A stretch of DNA of 64,000 bases from Candidatus Daviesbacteria bacterium (GTDB taxonomy: Bacteria; Patescibacteriota; Microgenomatia; Daviesbacterales; UBA10151), in the NCBI GenBank assembly GCA_030648645.1, contig JAUSHL010000038.1:3657-67656 (forward strand), written 5' to 3'. Shown here piece by piece: positions 5,170 to 53,982 of the stretch. Both the position numbers and the translations under genes were made by a program. Numbering within the stretch: the first letter of the stretch is position 1; each line of letters opens with the position of its first letter. The notes under the pieces are model-generated. The model saw only the letters and a program-made list of their open reading frames with translations. It searched no databases and had not been told where the DNA came from.

Positions 5170-6270
5170 TCAACTTAGATTCACCGGCATTATAATATAT
5201 TGTAACCCCTCTTCTCCAATTGGTTTAATTAAAGTCGCAGATAAAATCCCGGAAAATTCCATTACTACCTTTGTGGTATTTAAATTAGAAAAAGCATCAA
5301 TTAAAAACTTAGTATTAAAAGCAATAGCAATATCTTCTCCCTCTTTTTCTGCTTCAAATTGTTTTTCCTGACTCCCCAACTCTTTTGCCTCAGAACTTAA
5401 AATAATTTTTCCCTCCAGACAATTTAATTTAACAATATTGGCTTCATTTCGGGAAAACACAGCTGCCAATTTTACTGCTTTCAAAAATCCACTTCTGTCT
5501 AAAATAACTTTAGTAATTACTTTTTCCGGAATAATTTTTTCCCAAGCCGGAAATTGTCCTTCAATCAAGCGGGAGGATACTTGGGTATTACCAAAAGAAA
5601 AAATCATTTGATTATTATCTTCCGACACGGCAATTTTAACCAAATCAGCAGAATCTTCTGAAATTAAACGGACAATTTCTTCAAAAGTCCTCTTTGGCAC
5701 TAAAGCTTTAAAAGAAGATGTTTCGGCAATCGGCACAATTTTATGTGCCAGACGATAACCGTCGGTGGCAACCAATTGTAGTTTTTTATCTTTTATCTCC
5801 GTTAAAATTCCGGTTAAAGTTGGTCTGCCATCATCCATGGCGGCGGCAAAAATAATTTCCGGCAAAGATTTAACTAAAATTTCCGATTCAATTGAAACTG
5901 TATCTTTCCCAAGTAAAGGAATTGATGGAAATTCCAAAGCCGAAATACCGTTTAATTTGGAAGAAAAAGTCGGAGTAGAAATTTCTATTTGATCATTACT
6001 TCCACTTATTTCAATTTTTTCACCTGATAAATTAGCAATTACTTCCACAAAAGTTTTAGCCGGCACTGTCACTTCTCCTTCTTCTAAAATTTCGGCATTA
6101 ATAAATTTTACTACGCCAATTTCTAAGTTTGTGGAAGAAAGTTTTAATTTTCCGGAAGAAGCCTGAACTAAAACATTGCCCAAAACCGGAAGTTGTGCAC
6201 GCACACCAGTTGATCTGGCGACAGCTTGCAGTGTGGGTATTAAATCCTGTTGTAAGATTATAAATTTCAT
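5170..6270 (-). CDS. dnaN: DNA polymerase III beta subunit (sliding clamp)
   Basis: N-terminus MKFIILQQDLIPTLQAVARSTGVRAQLPVLGNVLV typical of DnaN; 366 aa; adjacent to dnaA. Confidence 0.9.
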   Translation of the reverse strand: MKFIILQQDLIPTLQAVARSTGVRAQLPVLGNVLVQASSGKLKLSSTNLEIGVVKFINAEILEEGEVTVPAKTFVEVIANLSGEKIEISGSNDQIEISTPTFSSKLNGISALEFPSIPLLGKDTVSIESEILVKSLPEIIFAAAMDDGRPTLTGILTEIKDKKLQLVATDGYRLAHKIVPIAETSSFKALVPKRTFEEIVRLISEDSADLVKIAVSEDNNQMIFSFGNTQVSSRLIEGQFPAWEKIIPEKVITKVILDRSGFLKAVKLAAVFSRNEANIVKLNCLEGKIILSSEAKELGSQEKQFEAEKEGEDIAIAFNTKFLIDAFSNLNTTKVVMEFSGILSATLIKPIGEEGLQYIIMPVNLS

Positions 6271-6354: not shown

Positions 6355-6816
6355 TCATTTTCCTCTGGTGACAAACCCATGTACTTCTTCTTCACTAACT
6401 TTAATCAATCTAAAATTAACTCTCCCGGTTGTAATTAGGTTTTTAATGTGTTTTTCCTCTTCTGTCAAGACATGAAAATTTCCTGACTTTACTTCAATAA
6501 AATCAATTCTCTCATTATTTTTAATACCAATAAAATCTACAGGCTGACCTAAAGGAATAATCCGGTCATAATCATATCTAAGTTCAGCATAAGTTAAAAG
6601 CTCAGCCATTTTCCCCTTTTGCGGATTAATTGATCCCTGAATAGTTTGCAATACTCTGGCTGGTAAATCCTGTAATCCTTTGTACAGATCAATTAAATCA
6701 GTTGGAATATCACTCCCACCCTTGCGGTGAAGCCTGCCAAACAAATAAGCTACCAATAAGGCTAAAATACCTATTAAAATGTAAATAAAAGTTTGATCCA
6801 TTGTTAGTTTGTCCAC
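6355..6816 (-). CDS. membrane-anchored protein with putative PD-(D/E)xK nuclease-like fold
   Basis: N-terminal TM helix; PVDFIGI...(11 aa)...DFIEVKSG resembles D...(D/E)xK core of Hjc/Mrr-like nucleases; sits between dnaA and dnaN. Confidence 0.3.
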   Translation of the reverse strand: MDKLTMDQTFIYILIGILALLVAYLFGRLHRKGGSDIPTDLIDLYKGLQDLPARVLQTIQGSINPQKGKMAELLTYAELRYDYDRIIPLGQPVDFIGIKNNERIDFIEVKSGNFHVLTEEEKHIKNLITTGRVNFRLIKVSEEEVHGFVTRGK

Positions 6817-7124
6817 ATAGAGCCTGAACTACTTTTTGTAATTAATAAAATAGTAGTAGTATTTATAGGCAGTGTTGATAAGTGTATAAATAGGGTATAT
6901 TTATGAGTAATTGATTGGTGGATAAGCATAGAATCATTTTACAGCTTCAACGAACAACAAACAACAGTCTGTTTACTCTCGAGCTTTTGTCTTATTTTCG
7001 TGTGTAAAAAGTATAGTCAACTTGGGGATAAGTTAGTGGATAACTTCATGTGTAATGTGGAAAACTCTGGAAGAATGAAGAATGAAGAATGAAGAATGAA
7101 GAATTAAGAATTAAGAATTAAGAA
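6808..7124. promoter_or_regulatory. dnaA-dnaN intergenic region with a cluster of DnaA-box-like 9-mers; candidate oriC segment
   Basis: TTGTCCACA (6808-6816), TGTTGATAA (6873-6881, reverse of TTATCAACA), GTGGATAAG (~6919), GGGATAAG (~7025), TGGATAAC (~7037); AT-rich; heptamer tandem repeat at 7071-7127. Confidence 0.6.
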
Positions 7125-7127
7125 TTA
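7071..7127. repeat. 7-nt tandem repeat (AAGAATG x3 then AAGAATT x4) abutting dnaA stop codon
   Basis: Directly visible: gaagaatgaagaatgaagaatgaagaattaagaattaagaattaagaatta. Confidence 0.9.
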
Positions 7128-8459
7128 ATCCAATAATTTTTGCTTTATCTCTCCAATAATTTTTTGAATTTCACTGTCTGTATTTAAAATTACCCCAATT
7201 TTTTCTACGCCGTGCATAATAGTTGTGTGATCTCTTCCTCCCAACATTTCACCGATCTTTTCATAAGGTAGTTTACAGTCTTGATATAAGATATACATAG
7301 CAATCTGACGGGATCTGACGAGATCTTTTTTACGGTTTGGTCCCACTAAATCTGCCATTTTAATATCAAAATATTGATTAATACCGGCTAAAACCTTTTT
7401 TTGATCAATTTTAAAGCCACTGGTTACACTTACTTTTCCCAACAGAAATCGGACATTTTCCTCATTAAATTCTTTCCCTGTGAGTTTTAAGGTTTGAATA
7501 ATCTGCATTAATTTACCTTCTAACTCACGCCCATTGGTAGAGATATTTTCAGCAATTAAAGTTAAACAATTTTCCGGAATATCATCCCCTTTTTCCTTAC
7601 ATTTAGCCTTTAAAATTGCGACCCTAGTATCAAAATCAGGAAGTTGAATATCAACCATCATTCCTCCCTGAAAACGGGAAGCCAAACGGGGTTCTAATTT
7701 CTGAATTTCATGAGGAGGACGGTCGGCTGTGACAATAATTTGGATATTTTTACCTTGTAGATCATTAAAAGTGTGAAAAAATTCTTCCTGTGTTGAATCA
7801 CGGCCGGATAAAAATTGGACATCATCAATTAGTAATAAATTACAGCTCCTATATTTAGTTCTAAATTGGGTCATACTTTTGGTCTGAATCCCCTGTACTA
7901 AATCATTGGTAAATTGCTCCAGTGGTGAGTAAATTATTTTTAAATTAGGATTTTTTTTAAGAAGAGCGTGTCCTACACCGACCATTAAATGAGTCTTTCC
8001 TACTCCGGTTCCGCCATATAAAAATAAAGGATTGTAAGAAAGTCCGGGATTGGCAATGACAGCTTGGGCTGCAGCATAGGCTAGATTGTTAGAAAGTCCA
8101 ACCACAAAATTCTCCAGAGAATATTTGGGATTTAAGTTGGTAATATTAGTTTTTGGGGTACTGGAAAATAAATTTAGTTCAAAATTATCATCTTCCGGAT
8201 TTTCTTCAGAGCGAGATTTAGTACTGCTCACTCTCAAATCAATTGGAATGGGCTTACCTAGGATCTGTTTTACAGCTTCTTCTAATACATCCTGATGTTT
8301 AGTATGGATTTCCTGCTTGATAAAATGAGTTGCTACAAAAATCACAAATTTTCCATCCACTTCCCCATCACAACTAGCCTTAGCAAACCACATTTTGTAA
8401 TTTATCGGAGAAACCTGATCTTTTATTATTTCCAGTACTTTATGCCATTCTTTATTCAT
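7125..8459 (-). CDS. dnaA: chromosomal replication initiator protein DnaA
   Basis: AAA+ Walker A GGTGVGKTHL, DnaA box-binding C-terminal domain; 444 aa; followed by dnaN. Confidence 0.95.
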   Translation of the reverse strand: MNKEWHKVLEIIKDQVSPINYKMWFAKASCDGEVDGKFVIFVATHFIKQEIHTKHQDVLEEAVKQILGKPIPIDLRVSSTKSRSEENPEDDNFELNLFSSTPKTNITNLNPKYSLENFVVGLSNNLAYAAAQAVIANPGLSYNPLFLYGGTGVGKTHLMVGVGHALLKKNPNLKIIYSPLEQFTNDLVQGIQTKSMTQFRTKYRSCNLLLIDDVQFLSGRDSTQEEFFHTFNDLQGKNIQIIVTADRPPHEIQKLEPRLASRFQGGMMVDIQLPDFDTRVAILKAKCKEKGDDIPENCLTLIAENISTNGRELEGKLMQIIQTLKLTGKEFNEENVRFLLGKVSVTSGFKIDQKKVLAGINQYFDIKMADLVGPNRKKDLVRSRQIAMYILYQDCKLPYEKIGEMLGGRDHTTIMHGVEKIGVILNTDSEIQKIIGEIKQKLLD

Positions 8460-8647
8460 ATGTTATATCCAAAATTCTTATTTTGGATTCAAGCCATTTA
8501 ATGAGAATTATGCATCCGAGTTAAATTGGCTTATCCACATCCCAGATTCTAGTGTATAAGTTATCCACATTGAAAGATGGAGGAAGTATAAATAACTAGA
8601 TCAATTTTTATATTTAAAGATAATAATTTTTGTGATACTGTAAATAT
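8460..8647. promoter_or_regulatory. dnaA upstream region with two perfect DnaA boxes; candidate oriC segment / dnaA autoregulation
   Basis: TTATCCACA at 8531-8539 and 8561-8569. Confidence 0.65.
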
Positions 8648-9298
8648 ATGACAAATAATGATTTAGTTTATGGATTTTTAGACGAGTCTCCTAATTTACA
8701 GGATAAATTTGCTTTCTTTTCAGTAGTTATTATATTAAGCACTAACCCAGATGAGAAAAGTTATAGATCAATTTTTAAAAAAACTCGCAAGAATGTTCTT
8801 AAAAAGAAACAGAAAGAAATCCCTGAATTAAAGTTTGCCAATTCTACTCCTCAAGTAAGAATTAAAATACTGAAGGCCATTGGTAAAAGATCTATTAAAA
8901 TATCTGCTTATATTTTGGATAAAGCAGGAAGACGTATACCAGATACGCCTGAAAATTATGGTATTGTGGCTGGTTTTGCGATTAGTGAGGTATTAAAGAA
9001 ATACCCTGTTATTGTTTTAACTTTTGATAAAAAATATACCAAAGTTAAAGATCAAGAAGAAGTGGAGAGAGTAACATTAAAAGTTGTAGCTAAAGTTTTA
9101 AAGAAAGGTGTATTACAGTTTAAGGAGCATGGTGATAGCAAAGCAAACAGTATACTTCAAATGGCAGATTTTGTAGCTGGGGCAGTAAGTTATAAATACA
9201 ATTTGAATGATAAGAGCTACTGGGAGTTGATAAAGGATTTAATTGAACAGGAAAATAAGGAATCATGGATAGATATTAAAGCAATTTATAAGCAATAA
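8648..9298 (+). CDS. DUF3800-like protein (accessory cassette gene)
   Basis: N-terminal VYGFLDESPN resembles the Y-x-DESG signature of DUF3800; bracketed by repeat modules. Confidence 0.3.
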   Translation: MTNNDLVYGFLDESPNLQDKFAFFSVVIILSTNPDEKSYRSIFKKTRKNVLKKKQKEIPELKFANSTPQVRIKILKAIGKRSIKISAYILDKAGRRIPDTPENYGIVAGFAISEVLKKYPVIVLTFDKKYTKVKDQEEVERVTLKVVAKVLKKGVLQFKEHGDSKANSILQMADFVAGAVSYKYNLNDKSYWELIKDLIEQENKESWIDIKAIYKQ

Positions 9299-9485
9299 AA
9301 AAGAATAGTCAATCCCTGGGCTCCGATTCTCACCGCCTTTTTCGAGGGTAAACCCCGATGGGTCTACTTTGCACGGAATAAGACCGCTATTGCTGGACTA
9401 GAGATCCCAGGACTTACTCGACTATTCTTGATTAAGATTGTACCAAATTTTCACCAATTTTTCAAGGCCCAGATTTTAAAATAAC

Positions 9486-9722
9486 TCAAGCAAAGGAAGG
9501 AAGTATAAGCTTATTTAGTTTCACTAAATATCTTGAACCCAAAATAAGTATTTTGGGTATAATCTAATTCAACTCAAGCTTGTAAAAATTCGTTGAATAT
9601 CTTGAATTCAAAATGAAGCATTTTGAATATAAACCAATTTAACTCGTCCACCAGTGGCGGACTCATTAAATAGTTTGAACCAAAAATTTGCAAATTTTTG
9701 GTATAAATAACTAGATCAATTT
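9486..9722. repeat. ~235-bp direct repeat copy 1 (three tandem -35/palindrome/-10-like modules plus a GC hairpin), left flank of the HEPN/MNT cassette
   Basis: Near-identical to 10586-10812; contains TTGAAC-ccaaaatNNNattttgg-gTATAAT style units. Confidence 0.85.
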
Positions 9723-9736
9723 TTGAGTTCTGGGAG

Positions 9737-10093
9737 TTATTGGATTTTATCTTTCACAAAGCTTGTAATTTCTTTAGCAAACTTATAAGCTTCTTCTGAT
9801 TTTTCCTTAGTAAAATGAATAAATTCTGAAAGATCTGGGTAGCGTGAAGGAATGTAATAGGTGTTAAGAGCAACACACTCGTTTCTTAAACTCTCAAAAG
9901 ACTGGTCACTTTTAATACATTCTTCAAGTAGTGCTCTTAAATCGTGAATTTTCTTGATGTCTTTTTCTTGACTAATCAAATAAGCTTTTAGAGCTTTTTC
10001 CACTGCTTGCTGGGATGTAAAACAAGCTCCATACCAAATTTTTCCTTCCAGACTATTTTTGTAACTATTCAGAGTTTCCCAGTAGACTGTCAT
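9737..10093 (-). CDS. HEPN domain protein (toxin component of HEPN/MNT pair)
   Basis: C-terminal YYIPSRYPD motif characteristic of HEPN proteins partnered with minimal nucleotidyltransferases; 118 aa. Confidence 0.6.
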   Translation of the reverse strand: MTVYWETLNSYKNSLEGKIWYGACFTSQQAVEKALKAYLISQEKDIKKIHDLRALLEECIKSDQSFESLRNECVALNTYYIPSRYPDLSEFIHFTKEKSEEAYKFAKEITSFVKDKIQ

Positions 10094-10157
10094 CGCGAGG
10101 GTCGAAACTTCGACCCGTGGCGATCTAATTAGATTGCTTCGCTACGCTCGCAATGAC
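10088..10157. mobile_element. MITE-like GC-rich palindromic element (tgtcatcgcgagg...ctcgcaatgac)
   Basis: Terminal inverted repeats shared with >10 other copies in window; its terminal tgtcat supplies the ATG of the HEPN gene. Confidence 0.6.
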
Positions 10158-10261
10158 GATTTTATTGGGAAGAACTAATTAGTTACCTATTTTTTGTCCA
10201 GGAAAGATCATCTAATGCATAATTAAGCCATTTCTGAGATGACTTATTTATTGATTTACGA

Positions 10262-10558
10262 TTATCCATATACAATTTTACCAGTCTCGTTAGCCTCTTT
10301 TATAAAAAGATTATCTAGTTTTGCTTTTTCGAATTCCTGGGGTGTTAACACAAATATGTCAACAGCAGTTACTGTTCTTAGAAGTAGATGTACTTGTTTT
10401 TGTCTTTCAAGAAAAGGCAGGGTAGTTTTTTTTATAACGACAAGATCTACATCACTATCTGAGCTGGGTTTACCATTAGCATAAGATCCAAAAAGAATTA
10501 TTTTTTCCGGGTTATAAGGCATAATTTGATCAATAATGTCTTGAACTACTGAATTCAT
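10262..10558 (-). CDS. minimal nucleotidyltransferase (MNT, antitoxin component of HEPN/MNT pair)
   Basis: LFGSYANGKPSSDSDVDLVVI = GS...D.D nucleotidyltransferase motif; 98 aa. Confidence 0.7.
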   Translation of the reverse strand: MNSVVQDIIDQIMPYNPEKIILFGSYANGKPSSDSDVDLVVIKKTTLPFLERQKQVHLLLRTVTAVDIFVLTPQEFEKAKLDNLFIKEANETGKIVYG

Positions 10559-10585
10559 GAGTACATTGTATCATAAAAAAAAAGG

Positions 10586-10812
10586 GGGGGGAGGAAGTAT
10601 AAGCTTATTTAGTTTCACTAAATATCTTGAACCCAAAATTTTGGAGAATTTTAGGTATAAACCAATTTAACTCAATTTTACAACTCTCGTTAAATGGCTT
10701 GAATTCAAAATGAAGCATTTTGAATATAAACCAATTTAACTCGTCCACCAGTGGCGGACTCATTAAATAGTTTGAACCAAAAATTTGCAAATTTTTGGTA
10801 TAAATAACTAGA
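10586..10812. repeat. ~230-bp direct repeat copy 2, right flank of the HEPN/MNT cassette
   Basis: Near-identical to 9486-9722 (shared ggaagtataagcttatttagtttcactaaatatcttgaaccc... and ...tccaccagtggcggactcattaaatagtttgaaccaaaaatttgcaaatttttggtataaataactagatca). Confidence 0.85.
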
Positions 10813-10863
10813 TCAGTTTTTGGGGTTGATAAATTATGCCTCTGTGGTTTATACTTAATAAGT

Positions 10864-11001
10864 ATGCCAAAGCGCACATATCAACCAAAAAAATTAAAAA
10901 GATTGCGAAAACATGGATTCATCAAAAGAATGGAAACTCGTGATGGACAAAAAGTTTTAAAAAGAAGAAGAGCCAGGGGTAGAAAAAAGTTGACGGTATA
11001 G
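10864..11001 (+). CDS. rpmH: 50S ribosomal protein L34 (absent from the ORF track because it is only 45 aa)
   Basis: Translates to [45 protein letters not shown], a classic L34; precedes rnpA. Confidence 0.9.
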
Positions 11002-11003
11002 TC

Positions 11004-11114
11004 TGTCATTCTGAGCACTTCGATGTCATTGCGAGCGAAGTGAAGCAATCTCAGTGTAAACTCAGCGAAGAATCTCTTGAGATTGCTTCTCCGGCTTCGC
11101 CGGATCGCAATGAC
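11004..11114. mobile_element. MITE-like palindromic element between rpmH and rnpA
   Basis: gtcattgcgagcgaagtgaagcaatctc ... gagattgcttctccggcttcgccggatcgcaatgac forms one long imperfect palindrome. Confidence 0.6.
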
Positions 11115-11125
11115 AATAAAATAAA

Positions 11126-12587: not shown

Positions 12588-12600
12588 AGATTTTTGTTGT

Positions 12601-12788
12601 GTCATTGCGATCCGGCGAAGCCGGAGTGGCAATCTTTTCTATCTACAATAAACTAATTTAACTCGTCCGCCAACCGGCGGACTCGTTAAATATTTTGAAC
12701 CCAAAATTTTGATTAAAAGTTGTAGACTGGAGTATTTTGGGTATAGATTGCTTCGTCGTCCGCCAGCTGGCGGACTCCTCGCAATGAC
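12601..12788. mobile_element. composite MITE-like element (gtcattgcga...ctcgcaatgac termini) enclosing a hairpin plus promoter-like module
   Basis: Termini match the MITE family; interior carries atttaactcgtccgccaaccggcggactcgttaaat hairpin and ttgaacccaaaatttt...attttgggtata unit. Confidence 0.5.
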
Positions 12789-12924
12789 AGTAATTTTTTC
12801 TGATTGACTGATCCTAGATTTTCCTTTATACCCACATTACTTTAATGGGTTCAAACTTTTTAATGAGACCGCCAGCTGGCGGTTGCAAAATCGAATTAAA
12901 ATAGTTTATACTTACCTTCATTGT

Positions 12925-23863: not shown

Positions 23864-24280
23864 TTAGGTAGAAATTTTAACAGAGTGGGCTTTTAACCAT
23901 TCGGATATTTGTTCCACTGAATAATTTTCATTTACTACTTTTCTTGTAAATTTGACTGCTTCTTTCCTTTTAATTTTTAAGGAATATTTATTATATTCAA
24001 GAAATAAAATAGCACAAAAAAGGGAAGTTCTTTTGTTTCCATCTAAAAAAGGATGGTTATTGATTATAGAATGAAATAAAGATGCACTTTTATCAAAAAT
24101 GGATTTATAAGCATCTTGAAATCCGATTGACATTTGAGGCCTACCTACAGAAGAACTTAATATATGTAAATCCCTTACACCATGAATGCCACCAAATTGA
24201 GACACCAATTCTTCATTGATAGCGATTATTTCTGCCTCAGAAAGATAGTGAATTATTATACTCTTGCCAGATCTTGCCAT
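23864..24280 (-). CDS. doc: Fic/Doc family toxin (death-on-curing)
   Basis: Fic motif HPFLDGNKRTSLF. Confidence 0.75.
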   Translation of the reverse strand: MARSGKSIIIHYLSEAEIIAINEELVSQFGGIHGVRDLHILSSSVGRPQMSIGFQDAYKSIFDKSASLFHSIINNHPFLDGNKRTSLFCAILFLEYNKYSLKIKRKEAVKFTRKVVNENYSVEQISEWLKAHSVKIST

Positions 24281-28627: not shown

Positions 28628-29038
28628 ATGATTATTGATAGTAATATTTTAATCTATGCAATTAACTCCGACTCTCCCAAAAACAAAAAAGCTCAGGAAT
28701 TTTTAAGAGAGAATTTAAAAAATTTAGAAGTTACTCATCAAAATATATTAGAAACTCTAAGAGTTTTAACCCATCCGAAATTTTCCAAAAAAATGAAATC
28801 ACAAGATGCTCTAGAATCAATTACAGGTATAATAAGAGTTGCCAGAATTATCCAGCCCAGATATGAAACCTATTATGTATTTTTGGAGTTACTAAAAAAA
28901 CACCAGTTTGGGGGAGATAAAATTTTTGATATATATCTTATAGCTACAGCTTTAAGTAATAATATTGAGACAATAGCTACAGATAATACAAAAGATTTTA
29001 TAAAATTCAAGGAGATCAAGACAATAAATCCTTTTTAG
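28628..29038 (+). CDS. vapC: PIN-domain ribonuclease toxin VapC
   Basis: MIIDSNILIYAIN... conserved acidic residues of PIN fold. Confidence 0.75.
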   Translation: MIIDSNILIYAINSDSPKNKKAQEFLRENLKNLEVTHQNILETLRVLTHPKFSKKMKSQDALESITGIIRVARIIQPRYETYYVFLELLKKHQFGGDKIFDIYLIATALSNNIETIATDNTKDFIKFKEIKTINPF

Positions 29039-30821: not shown

Positions 30822-31187
30822 TCAAGAATTAGTTTCTAGATGTGATTTATAATCATTCAGTCTATTAATGGCAGTTTTTATCTCTCTTGTATCAGTTTTT
30901 TGCTTCTTTTTTTGGAAAGCATGGAGCAATAAAAATTGTCGATTCACTACTGCTACATAAAAGATTCTAATATTGTCACTCCCAAGAATACGAAGTTCCC
31001 ATAAGGGTGTGCCTATTAATTTCTTTGAGTGGGGAGAACCAATTAAGGTACCAAGTTGTTTTAACAAATCCATAACACCTATGACTTTGGATTTAATTTT
31101 AGGATCAAGATTTTGGATAAATTCAAAAGCAGGGGAGCTACCTTGAGAAGTTTCGTAATAGATAATTTTCCATTTCTGATCCATCAA
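30822..31187 (-). CDS. RelE/ParE-superfamily toxin, HigB/phage Gp49-like, upstream of its antitoxin
   Basis: Size, position (toxin-first arrangement), weak similarity to HigB-like proteins. Confidence 0.5.
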   Translation of the reverse strand: MMDQKWKIIYYETSQGSSPAFEFIQNLDPKIKSKVIGVMDLLKQLGTLIGSPHSKKLIGTPLWELRILGSDNIRIFYVAVVNRQFLLLHAFQKKKQKTDTREIKTAINRLNDYKSHLETNS

Positions 31188-44359: not shown

Positions 44360-44475
44360 ACTTGTGAATTATAAGCCAATTTAACTCAAATTGCAACTTT
44401 CGTTAAATGGCTTGAGCCCAAATTAAAGTATTTGGGCATAACAAAATTTAGGCACAAAAGCAAATCTGGGTGCGA

Positions 44476-50457: not shown

Positions 50458-50583
50458 TTTTTATGGCAAGTTAGTTAATTATATCCAAAACACTCGCTTA
50501 ATCAAAGTTTTGGATTCAAGCTATTTAACGAGACCGCCAGCTGGCGGTTGCAAATTCGAGTTAAATTAGCTTATACTTAAAAT

Positions 50584-53813: not shown

Positions 53814-53982
53814 TAGTTTATTTTAACTGTTTCAGAAGACAGAATGAAGTCTTTACTTTGTTTAAATCATTGATATAAGATGGATATAAGCTAATTTAAC
53901 TCGAGTATGTAGCTCTCGTTAAATATCTTGAACCCAAAATATTATAATATTTTGGGTATAGAGCAAGAAAGGAAAGTTTTAA

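Follow-up and report, generated by a model that had tools for sequence, protein, structure and literature searches.

Lineage-specific gene cassettes and a two-hairpin mini-repeat family between dnaA and rpmH of a Candidatus Daviesbacteria bacterium

The genes dnaA and rpmH are normally adjacent. Why, then, do they lie 2404 bp apart in a contig of a Candidatus Daviesbacteria bacterium (GenBank assembly GCA_030648645.1, contig JAUSHL010000038.1, positions 3,657 to 67,656), with dnaA starting at 8459 on the minus strand and rpmH at 10864 on the plus strand? The whole stretch of 64,000 nucleotides is called the window here, and all positions are counted from its first letter. Two small modules fill the interval, a DUF3800 gene with a small RNA (sRNA) and an MNT gene with a HEPN gene, and they are arranged as follows: attachment-like (att-like) segment, DUF3800 gene and sRNA, segment, HEPN gene read leftward from MNT, segment, rpmH. 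An earlier reading of the sequence (the original prediction) had proposed gain or loss of cassettes between direct repeats and had suggested a comparison of the dnaA-rpmH interval in relatives; this comparison supports the view of the genes, as judged by their distribution, as lineage-specific insertions. The explanation considered probable, with appreciable doubt, is that the dnaA-rpmH spacer is an accretion site, in which serial Campbell-type integration occurred at the att-like segment and small repeat units colonised the site separately.

Loci of relatives were obtained by a DnaA protein search and contig look-ups. The best DnaA matches were named Candidatus Daviesbacteria, with identities to the window of 88% (locus L081), 86% (L087), 83% (L088), 78% (L082), 66% (L084), and 63% (L086); a DnaA scan of GTDB representative genomes found relatives at 38-45% only, too distant for spacer comparison, and look-ups of the exact RpmH and DnaA sequences gave no match. 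In L087, L088, L082, and L084 dnaA and rpmH are about 90-135 bp apart, with neither a gene nor a unit between them, as against 2404 bp in the window, and thus the unusual gap reported by the original prediction was borne out. Each of these empty spacers has a pair of DnaA boxes, a version of GGGAGGAAGTATAAATAACTAGATCAGTTTTT with few substitutions, and the rpmH promoter. In the spacer alignment the DnaA box and the segment were almost invariant across relatives with 66-88% DnaA identity, and the spacer of the rpmH promoter was variable.

The att-like segment, (AAAGG)GGAGGAAG-TATAA-ATAACTAGATCARTTTTT, is about 38 bp long and occurs in three copies that bound both modules. Its 24-mer GTATAAATAACTAGATCAATTTTT is found at 8586, 9701, and 10798 and at no other site in the 64 kb (0 expected; 0 of 100 shuffles), and the 13-mer GGAGGAAGTATAA is likewise present three times, at 8579, 9496, and 10590. 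The first copy is short and carries no units. It is ancestral, because the same sequence is found in the dnaA-rpmH spacers of relatives, so that the proposal of a fused or truncated repeat at 8581-8610 has to be given up: this is ancestral spacer sequence, nearly invariant in six relatives. The second and third copies correspond to the near-identical direct repeats of about 230 bp that had been noticed (R1 and R2; extents in Table 1). Each contains three head-to-tail units and, inside the repeats, the GC hairpin TCCACCAGTGGCGGA, just as predicted. The repeats are real, although they are not uniformly alike: the blocks 9590-9725 and 10687-10822 (136 nt) are 97% alike and the blocks 9495-9545 and 10589-10639 (49 nt) are 98% alike, but the middle of about 45-50 nt between them shows only about 65% similarity. 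By alignment with the relatives, the long repeats are the ancestral segment with about 200 bp inserted between GTATAA and ATAAC.

The edges of the cassettes do not match the repeat units. They fall at the two ends of the ancestral segment (about 38 bp), which is duplicated at every cassette junction (three copies in the window, two in the sister strain L091). The right arm that precedes both window cassettes is GATCAATTTTT, and the one that precedes rpmH is the chromosomal GATCAGTTTTTG, as in L082; this arm of R2 and the ensuing rpmH promoter match both L082 and L084 in the spacer alignment. The difference between the arms indicates that arms travel with the cassettes.

Other relatives contain other genes in this region. 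In L081 an isochorismatase-family gene directly follows the segment, and L086 has a bestrophin-like gene and no segment that could be recognised. L091 was found by scanning metagenomes for the unit pattern, and its dnaA is 86% identical in DNA to that of the window. It contains dnaA, the DnaA boxes, an intact segment, and a Polbeta-type nucleotidyltransferase gene with a HepT RNase gene in plus orientation; beyond HepT there follow a 3' half-unit, one full unit, the right arm of the segment, and then a leader and a DUF3800 start like those of the window. L089, from a separate metagenome, shows the same junction, with a toxin-antitoxin cassette, array, right arm, and DUF3800. The left junction of the DUF3800 cassette is therefore common to the window and the sister strain; their toxin-antitoxin cassettes belong to different families and are also placed and oriented differently. 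Four different cassette bodies in three strains all start right after GATCAnTTTT; no common motif was apparent by eye at their inner ends. Since relatives have no gene or other cassettes at this point, the turnover of cassettes at the dnaA-rpmH site is real, and the predicted gain and loss between direct repeats is confirmed.

How could such an arrangement have arisen? The ancestral spacer would have measured about 90-135 bp, with two DnaA boxes, the near-invariant segment, and the rpmH promoter. Circular DNA carrying one copy of the site would recombine with the chromosomal copy, each integration adding one copy of the segment, and both modules would have integrated immediately downstream of it. 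In the most economical order, the DUF3800 module would have come first. Units would then have inserted into the segment copy next to rpmH as a head-to-tail array of three, and the MNT-HEPN module would have integrated into this unit-bearing copy; the presence of two repeats of about 230 bp would be explained by the array already being in place when MNT-HEPN arrived, and so being duplicated with the segment. An exchange within the middle of one array, and disruption of HEPN by a GC-rich mini-element, would complete the series. We infer the circular intermediate, this order of events, and an enzyme; candidates are a site-specific recombinase supplied in trans and RecA, for which 38-230 bp of homology would be available.

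Table 1. Positions in the window of the genes, segment copies, repeat units, and signals discussed in the text
Feature	Position	Strand	Remarks
dnaN	5170-6270	-	
Holliday-junction-resolvase-like gene	6355-6816	-	between dnaN and dnaA
dnaA	7125-8459	-	
Unit U7, single	8462-8537	-	82 bits (covariance model); between the DnaA box holding the relatives' dnaA start and the present ATG
Two perfect DnaA boxes, TTATCCACA	8531-8539 and 8561-8569	+	kept in all relatives
att-like segment copy 1, ancestral form without units, GGAGGAAG-TATAA-ATAACTAGATCAATTTTT	8579-8609	+	same sequence in L081, L082, L084, L087, L088, L091
DUF3800 gene (216 aa)	8648-9298	+	Pfam PF12686, E 1e-6
DUF3800-III sRNA	9302-9428	-	Rfam RF02962, 52.0 bits vs gathering score 43.8, E 2e-9
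sRNA promoter-like site, TTGAAA, 17 nt, TACAAT with preceding TG	9437-9465	-	top site of promoter scan, 10/12 matches
att-like segment copy 2 with three-unit array inserted at GTATAA^A (repeat R1; caret, insertion point)	9495-9725	+	units 9502-9555, 9556-9633, 9634-9707
HEPN, C-terminal 118 codons	9737-10093	-	Pfam HEPN PF05168, E 6.5e-30; ATG inside the GC-rich element
GC-rich inverted-repeat mini-element, GTCATCGCGAG...CTCGCAATGAC, 69 bp	10089-10157		splits HEPN
HEPN, N-terminal 30 codons	10183-10275	-	MYMDNRKSINKSSQKWLNYALDDLSWTKNR aligns with N-termini of P0148, P0151, P0154, P0161
MNT gene	10262-10558	-	Pfam NTP_transf_2/Polbeta (PF01909/PF18765), E 3e-10
att-like segment copy 3 with three-unit array (repeat R2)	10589-10822	+	units 10596-10653, 10654-10730, 10731-10804
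Native rpmH promoter, TTGATA, 18 nt, TATACT	10826-10855	+	ends 8 nt before rpmH ATG (10864); kept in L082, L084, L087, L088
rpmH	10864-11001	+	then rnpA, yidD, yidC, jag
Units outside the two arrays	12645-12747, 44368-44442, 53883-53962	+	covariance model
Units outside the two arrays	12825-12912, 50478-50577	-	covariance model

The units that fill R1 and R2 are about 75-100 nt long and have the consensus TATAA-RCYAATTTAACTC-(12-27 nt)-CTCRTTAAATAKYTTGAAYYCAAAAT-(loop)-ATTTTGRRTATAR, built from a 13-copy alignment. A covariance model found 12 copies in the window, all with E values of 5e-4 or below, and a scan for the unit pattern found units on six metagenome contigs as well. None was detected by the covariance model in L081-L088 or in nine other loci of the Candidate Phyla Radiation (CPR), none by a regular expression in 1.19 Mb of other genomes, and the units had no Rfam match. 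Folding is well supported: 98.3% of the cells of 19 specified pairs were paired, as against 24-49% when the partners were slid, six pairs had changes on both sides, and these values were reached by none of 500 shuffles. Single units folded with z-scores from -2.1 to -4.9. The two stems, AATTTAAC/GTTAAAT and TTGAACCCAAAAT/ATTTTGGGTATAA, are unrelated to each other; G-T wobbles at 14 cells favour folding of the sense strand, and C-A mismatches, which would be wobbles on the opposite strand, occur at 4 cells, a margin that does not decide between the strands. From these comparisons, the units are a dispersed, lineage-restricted family of two-hairpin mini-repeats that is not special to the cassettes described here, and the family is previously undescribed; literature searches gave nothing relevant on miniature inverted-repeat transposable elements (MITEs) in the CPR, nor on an integration hotspot between rpmH and dnaA.

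Insertion of units follows a fixed rule on the left side. The left flank ATAAR was invariant at all aligned units, and every unit ends in RTATAR. Three comparisons of empty and filled sites were available (a caret marks the point of insertion). In the spacer, six relatives read GGAAGTATAA^ATAACTAG, where the window has filled sites. Upstream of jag, L084 reads in reverse complement GTAAGTATAAAG^GATAAGG, and the window has GTAAGTATAAA, a unit, and GGAAAATC. At the start of dnaA, relatives read GTGGATAAG^TCATGG, and the window has GTGGATAAG, a unit, and ATATGAATAAAGAATGG. At each of these sites, the ATAAR on the left of the unit already belongs to the native sequence. At the first two sites GTATAA(A) stands on both sides of the unit, but in all units the right copy belongs to the element's own hairpin; the dnaA site shows instead a diverged duplication of about 11 nt. 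The target at these first two sites is the reverse complement of the -10 consensus of the lineage, TTTATACTT, which is seen before rpmH and jag in all relatives, and this explains why units lie near gene starts and have -10-like ends. About six independent insertions are on the plus strand and three on the minus strand.

The unit U7 lies at the start of dnaA itself. In L081, L082, and L091 dnaA starts at a GTG within the DnaA box (tGTGGATAAg), and in L081 and L091 this GTG of gtggataag is the start without a unit being present. In the window, U7 stands between GTGGATAAG and ATATGAATAAAG, the latter being a diverged copy of ATGTGGATAAG; the duplicate ATGAATAAAG provides a new dnaA ATG, 2 nt after U7, with no Shine-Dalgarno sequence and no obvious promoter between.

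The units resemble Correia, BOX, REP, and palindrome-associated elements, although none of these fits fully. Like Correia, BOX, REP/BIME, and IS200/IS605-derived palindrome-associated elements, they are non-coding, multi-copy, lineage-restricted, strongly folded, and 75-100 nt long; they are intergenic by gene starts, have -10-like ends and a fixed short insertion flank, and form modular or tandem arrays, as BOX and BIME do. Correia ends (TATAG...) are known to create promoters. They thus show the MITE traits of being short, non-coding, and multi-copy, and they insert 3' of a fixed ATAAR, apparently without target duplication, as palindrome-associated elements do. They differ in their weak terminal inverted repeats (by eye, about 10 of 13 positions agree between the 5' end TATAAACCAATTT and the reverse complement of the 3' end, TATACCCAAAAT), in that no fixed target duplication was seen, and in having two unlike hairpins. 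In IS200/IS605 elements the left- and right-end hairpins are alike and are recognised by one TnpA, and similar subterminal hairpins at both ends were not found in the units. To our knowledge, no cognate transposase of the units has been described.

Could the arrays be functional tandem promoters, the copy upstream of HEPN being a duplicated rpmH promoter region? This alternative is tentative and, on balance, unlikely. Several details agree with it. Unit ends read TATAAT or TATAAA after TTTTG(G), and U3 and U6 form TGGTATAAA, an extended -10; in U9, U10, L092, and L094 a start codon is found within 9-23 nt of the unit end. Each of the five units in the five co-directional intergenic regions has the orientation of the gene downstream of it, and the reverse complement of the unit 5' flanks gives TTTATACTT before jag and TATAAT before an M23 peptidase gene. 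In sigma-70 promoters the -35 and -10 hexamers are 16-18 nt apart. The distance between TTGAAY and TATAAW in the units was, however, 18, 19, 19, 19, 20, 20, 21, 21, 23, 23, 30, and 41 nt (U2 and U4 measured by hand), 19-21 nt within the R1 and R2 arrays, and a promoter scan called no unit hexamer pair; because of this spacing and the lack of a call, the units are not canonical sigma-70 promoters. That they are ordinary promoter modules is not supported either, in view of the compensatory changes of hairpin type and of the copies at six other places in the window and on the metagenome contigs. Moreover, U7 ends 2 nt before the dnaA ATG, too close to drive that start, U12 is oriented away from every gene, R1 is directed at the 3' end of HEPN, and units are absent from the orthologous promoters of relatives, where rpmH and jag have their own. 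Promoter activity at unit ends is possible.

At many genes a -10 box, often TGnTAnnnT, stands 6-9 nt before the ATG, with no Shine-Dalgarno sequence, as at those starting at 10864, 10558, and 8648 and in L092 and L094. This pattern suggests that leaderless mRNAs are common in the organism.

Several observations weigh against serial integration at the segment. The original prediction had advised a search for a site-specific recombinase, and a Pfam scan of about 60 open reading frames (ORFs) of the window revealed no integrase, no transposase, and no recombinase of another kind. Nor did the region (unit, segment, DUF3800, or DNA) have a phage or plasmid relative in IMG/VR, INPHARED, or PLSDB. 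The DUF3800 and sRNA module also occurs elsewhere without the segment and without units, and therefore the module does not have the segment as an inherent end. The MNT/HepT cassette of L091 has its right end inside a unit (TTTTGGAGAATTTTGGGTATAA^) and not at GGAGGAAGTATAA; the exact nucleotide of a junction can thus vary, and homologous or core-level recombination accounts for this better than a strict att site would. Finally, the contig was assembled from a metagenome, and the 136-nt identical block could not be phased by k-mers alone, so that the linkage of array middles with flanks could be mis-assembled.

Some of these points bear on a second alternative, namely that there is no dedicated site and that natural transformation, with RecA recombination through the dnaA and rpmH flanks, the segments, and the arrays, brought the genes in, extra segments arising by unequal crossing-over or illegitimate events. 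The arrays offer about 230 bp of homology, R1 and R2 are mosaics of identical blocks around a diverged middle, as expected after recombination or gene conversion between non-identical copies, and L091 has units that differ in number and type from those of the window. The L091 junction inside a unit and the lack of a recombinase among the ORFs scanned point in the same direction. This account leaves unexplained, however, the origin of the first duplicate of the 38-bp segment, 38 bp being a marginal length for RecA-dependent recombination, and why a single nucleotide after the T-run is the starting point of four different cassettes in three strains. This alternative is rather improbable. The mosaic arrays and the offset L091 junction favour some homologous exchange; the common start point of the four cassettes favours a defined site.

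Accretion by integration at the segment has parallels elsewhere. The cis-mobilisable elements next to ICESt1 and ICESt3, and the staphylococcal cassette chromosome (SCC) at rlmH near oriC, accumulate in tandem at one attachment site. As in those elements, including composite SCC, unrelated modules are stacked here at one point, a direct repeat of the site stands at each boundary, the elements lack recombinases, content varies among strains, and, as for SCC, the site is close to the origin. The locus differs in the lack of any recombinase hit in the window, in the very small size of its modules (0.9 kb each), in its repeat, an intergenic spacer by DnaA boxes and not the 3' end of a gene, and in one junction, in L091, that is offset.

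A third alternative unites units and genes. One hairpin-guided system with a TATAA core would move both units and gene cassettes: a strand-specific enzyme working in trans would bind the hairpin beside the core and place the DNA 3' of ATAAR. That enzyme might belong to the HUH/Y1 transposases of the IS200/IS605 kind or, comparable to the situation at integron attC sites, be a tyrosine recombinase with folded DNA as its substrate. As each element ends in TATAA, the target would be recreated, and head-to-tail arrays and the stacking of cassettes would be explained. Every joint, whether between units, left arm and unit, unit and right arm, or left and right arms, reads RTATAA^N; unit left flanks are invariantly ATAA(A/G), the native target in the three empty-site comparisons; all cassette right ends finish in RTATAA, as unit ends do; and arrays are strictly head-to-tail. 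The stems show co-variation and the loops vary in length (3 to 25 nt), as expected if the folded strand is what is recognised, and the arms of the first hairpin, ATTTAAC/GTTAAAT, fit the integron R''/R' consensus RYYYAAC/GTTRRRY. Against this, neither a Y1 transposase nor a recombinase was found in the 64-kb window, a unit has two hairpins of different kinds, and the ends of the gene cassettes lack hairpins, being arms of the ancestral segment. The supposed R' GTT is ATT in four units (U3, U6, U7, and the L091 unit), the hairpin measures 36-50 nt as against 57-141 nt for attC, and there is no strand bias of insertions relative to the origin. A system of this kind is improbable, and slightly more doubtful still is the wider reading of a novel hairpin-guided recombination system in candidate-phylum bacteria, with units and cassettes as its substrates and insertion 3' of ATAAR, very often at -10 boxes. 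If true, it would represent an integron-like platform beside the origin, without a known integrase, that stacks cassettes and builds arrays.

The likeness to integrons deserves separate mention. Integron attC sites are 57-141 nt long, with R'' RYYYAAC, R' GTTRRRY, and a cassette boundary at G^TT. The locus shares with integrons, and with clusters of attC sites lacking integron-integrases (CALINs), small serial cassettes that include toxin-antitoxin pairs, structured repeats between them, and the hairpin arms mentioned above. It differs in its boundaries, which lie at GATCARTTTTT^ and ^(AAAGG)GGAGGAAG and not at G^TT, in the short hairpin and variable GTT, in the first boundary copy, which has no hairpin, and in cassettes with their own promoters and opposite orientations. 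No IntI or Phage_integrase match was found among the window ORFs scanned. The attC reading was rejected on hairpin length, variable GTT, boundaries elsewhere, and absence of IntI from the window, and the likeness is superficial, since these four defining features were looked for and not found.

Collapse of strain variants or of a circular element into one contig of a metagenome-assembled genome (MAG), the kind of contig that the window is, has some appeal, since the closest relatives' contigs are only 1.5-3 kb long and end near the region, with which assemblers struggle, but it is very improbable, as a 45-nt block and single positions distinguish R1 from R2, each of which has unique flanks, and the independent metagenome contigs L089 and L091 show the same type of junction.

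Functions of the segment in replication were also considered. The 31-mer was rejected as a DnaA-trio or unwinding element by the criteria of PMC8287927, no run of three or more NAN triplets being present on the strand where the adjacent box reads TGTGGATAA, and as a dif/Xer site, as it has no dyad symmetry. The spacer between dnaA and dnaN, at 6851-6889, reads TAGTAGTAGTAT(TTATAG), then GCAG, then TGTTGATAAGTGTATAA, the pattern of an origin-unwinding module; the other strand shows tandem DnaA boxes, a GC spacer, and 3'-GAT-5' DnaA-trios. Because of this textbook module, the unwinding site probably lies there and not in the dnaA-rpmH spacer.

Cassettes and modules are built from known kinds of parts. 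That the first cassette holds a DUF3800-like gene, as the original prediction had it, was verified by Pfam, and an identical protein, named DUF3800, is on record in a Daviesbacteria MAG. An identical HEPN protein is recorded there as well, on a contig of 68,474 nt that is evidently the source of the window. The sRNA lies 4 nt from the stop codon of this gene, in convergent orientation, and its Rfam match is full-length (model positions 1-108). The promoter-like site listed in Table 1 would place the start of transcription at about 9428-9430, the first position of the Rfam match, and the closing stem followed by a T-run (9296-9310), which overlaps the end of the ORF, is terminator-like; these signals suggest a discrete sRNA of about 130 nt with its own predicted promoter and terminator. 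DUF3800 homologs with 72-87% identity occur in four unrelated neighbourhoods, one of them with a tyrosine recombinase next to it and another within a toxin-antitoxin island. At the DNA level, homology with these other contexts is confined to the ORF (8651-9296) and the RNA (9302-9432), and the RNA is present and convergent in each homologous locus, the pairing being seen in L095, L096, and L097. Compared with L099, the DNA identity was 95% for the sRNA and 84% for the DUF3800 ORF. On this comparative evidence, the DUF3800 gene and sRNA are a self-contained, portable two-gene module.

DUF3800 genes have been associated with structured RNAs in either orientation, with a role left unexplained (Weinberg et al. 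2017, PMC5737381), and an RNase H-like fold has been predicted for the protein (PMC10910872). The present case agrees with those DUF3800-associated RNAs (PMC5737381), with a match to RF02962 above the gathering score adjoining a DUF3800 gene and no essential difference; it adds an evident promoter and terminator, an sRNA more conserved than the ORF, and a portable pair. PADLOC gave a weak match of the DUF3800 gene to the candidate system PDC-M04A.

Two further observations concern DUF3800 loci elsewhere. At 5691-6748 of L096, a Phage_integrase-family gene (287 aa) and a LexA-like gene immediately precede the gene and sRNA, a context that hints at integrative elements as possible carriers of the module. 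In L089 (846-1082) the DUF3800 homolog keeps its first 45 codons or so, then diverges and stops after 78 aa, with no Pfam match, and is possibly a decayed copy.

For the second cassette, the predicted HEPN/MNT pair was half right. Both genes are supported by Pfam, adjacent, and on the same strand, but HEPN is not intact, being split by a GC-rich element of 69 bp. HEPN homologs of 128-137 aa align with the 118-aa ORF plus the fragment at 10183-10275; the two parts are in different frames, and the element between them supplies the ATG of the 118-aa ORF. Because the element and the frame change separate its parts, the gene is disrupted, and to judge from the reading frames MNT-HEPN is probably no longer a working toxin-antitoxin system. 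The locus thus agrees with known MNT-HEPN toxin-antitoxin pairs in its adjacent, co-directional genes with Pfam matches, and L091 has a HepT-type pair at the same site, but it differs in the interrupted and frame-shifted HEPN. Upstream of MNT, TGATACAAT lies 6 nt before the ATG, which fits a leaderless mRNA. PADLOC gave a weak match of MNT to the candidate system PDC-S09.

The element in HEPN belongs to a second mini-repeat family of GC-rich inverted repeats, GTCATTGCGAGCGAAG...CAATC...TCGCAATGAC, found at 10089-10157, about 11003-11118, 12591-12635, and 12745-12790. The copy at about 11003-11118 separates rpmH from rnpA, genes that overlap by 1 nt in L087, and two copies lie in the yidC-jag spacer, which measures 340 nt here versus 113 nt in L084. 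Other toxin-like genes of the window, of the Fic/DOC, PIN, and Gp49/HigB-like kinds, are located at 23864-24280, 28628-29038, and 30822-31187; no units and no 38-bp segment were found near them.

The start of the window lies near the replication origin, with the order dnaN, resolvase-like gene, dnaA, the 2404-bp interval, and rpmH. Directly downstream of the dnaA stop, at 7070-7125, there is an array of heptamers, (GAAGAAT)x5 followed by (TAAGAAT)x3. Upstream of dnaN, a gene for a TraG/HerA-like P-loop ATPase of 579 aa (1249-2988) stands beside large ORFs without a Pfam match, a region that may be part of a secretion or DNA-transfer apparatus.

Genomes of candidate phyla are tiny and usually seen as streamlined. 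Here, a site close to the origin turns over small defence or addiction modules among close strains, and at least two families of mini-repeats reshape intergenic DNA, the start of a gene (dnaA), and a toxin gene (HEPN). The two-hairpin family offers a definite candidate for a mini-element with a specific target, located at -10 boxes. The locus is, in addition, a clear case of a DUF3800 gene travelling with an sRNA, useful for working out the role of that RNA, and the 38-bp segment provides a marker for tracking cassette traffic in Daviesbacteria metagenomes.

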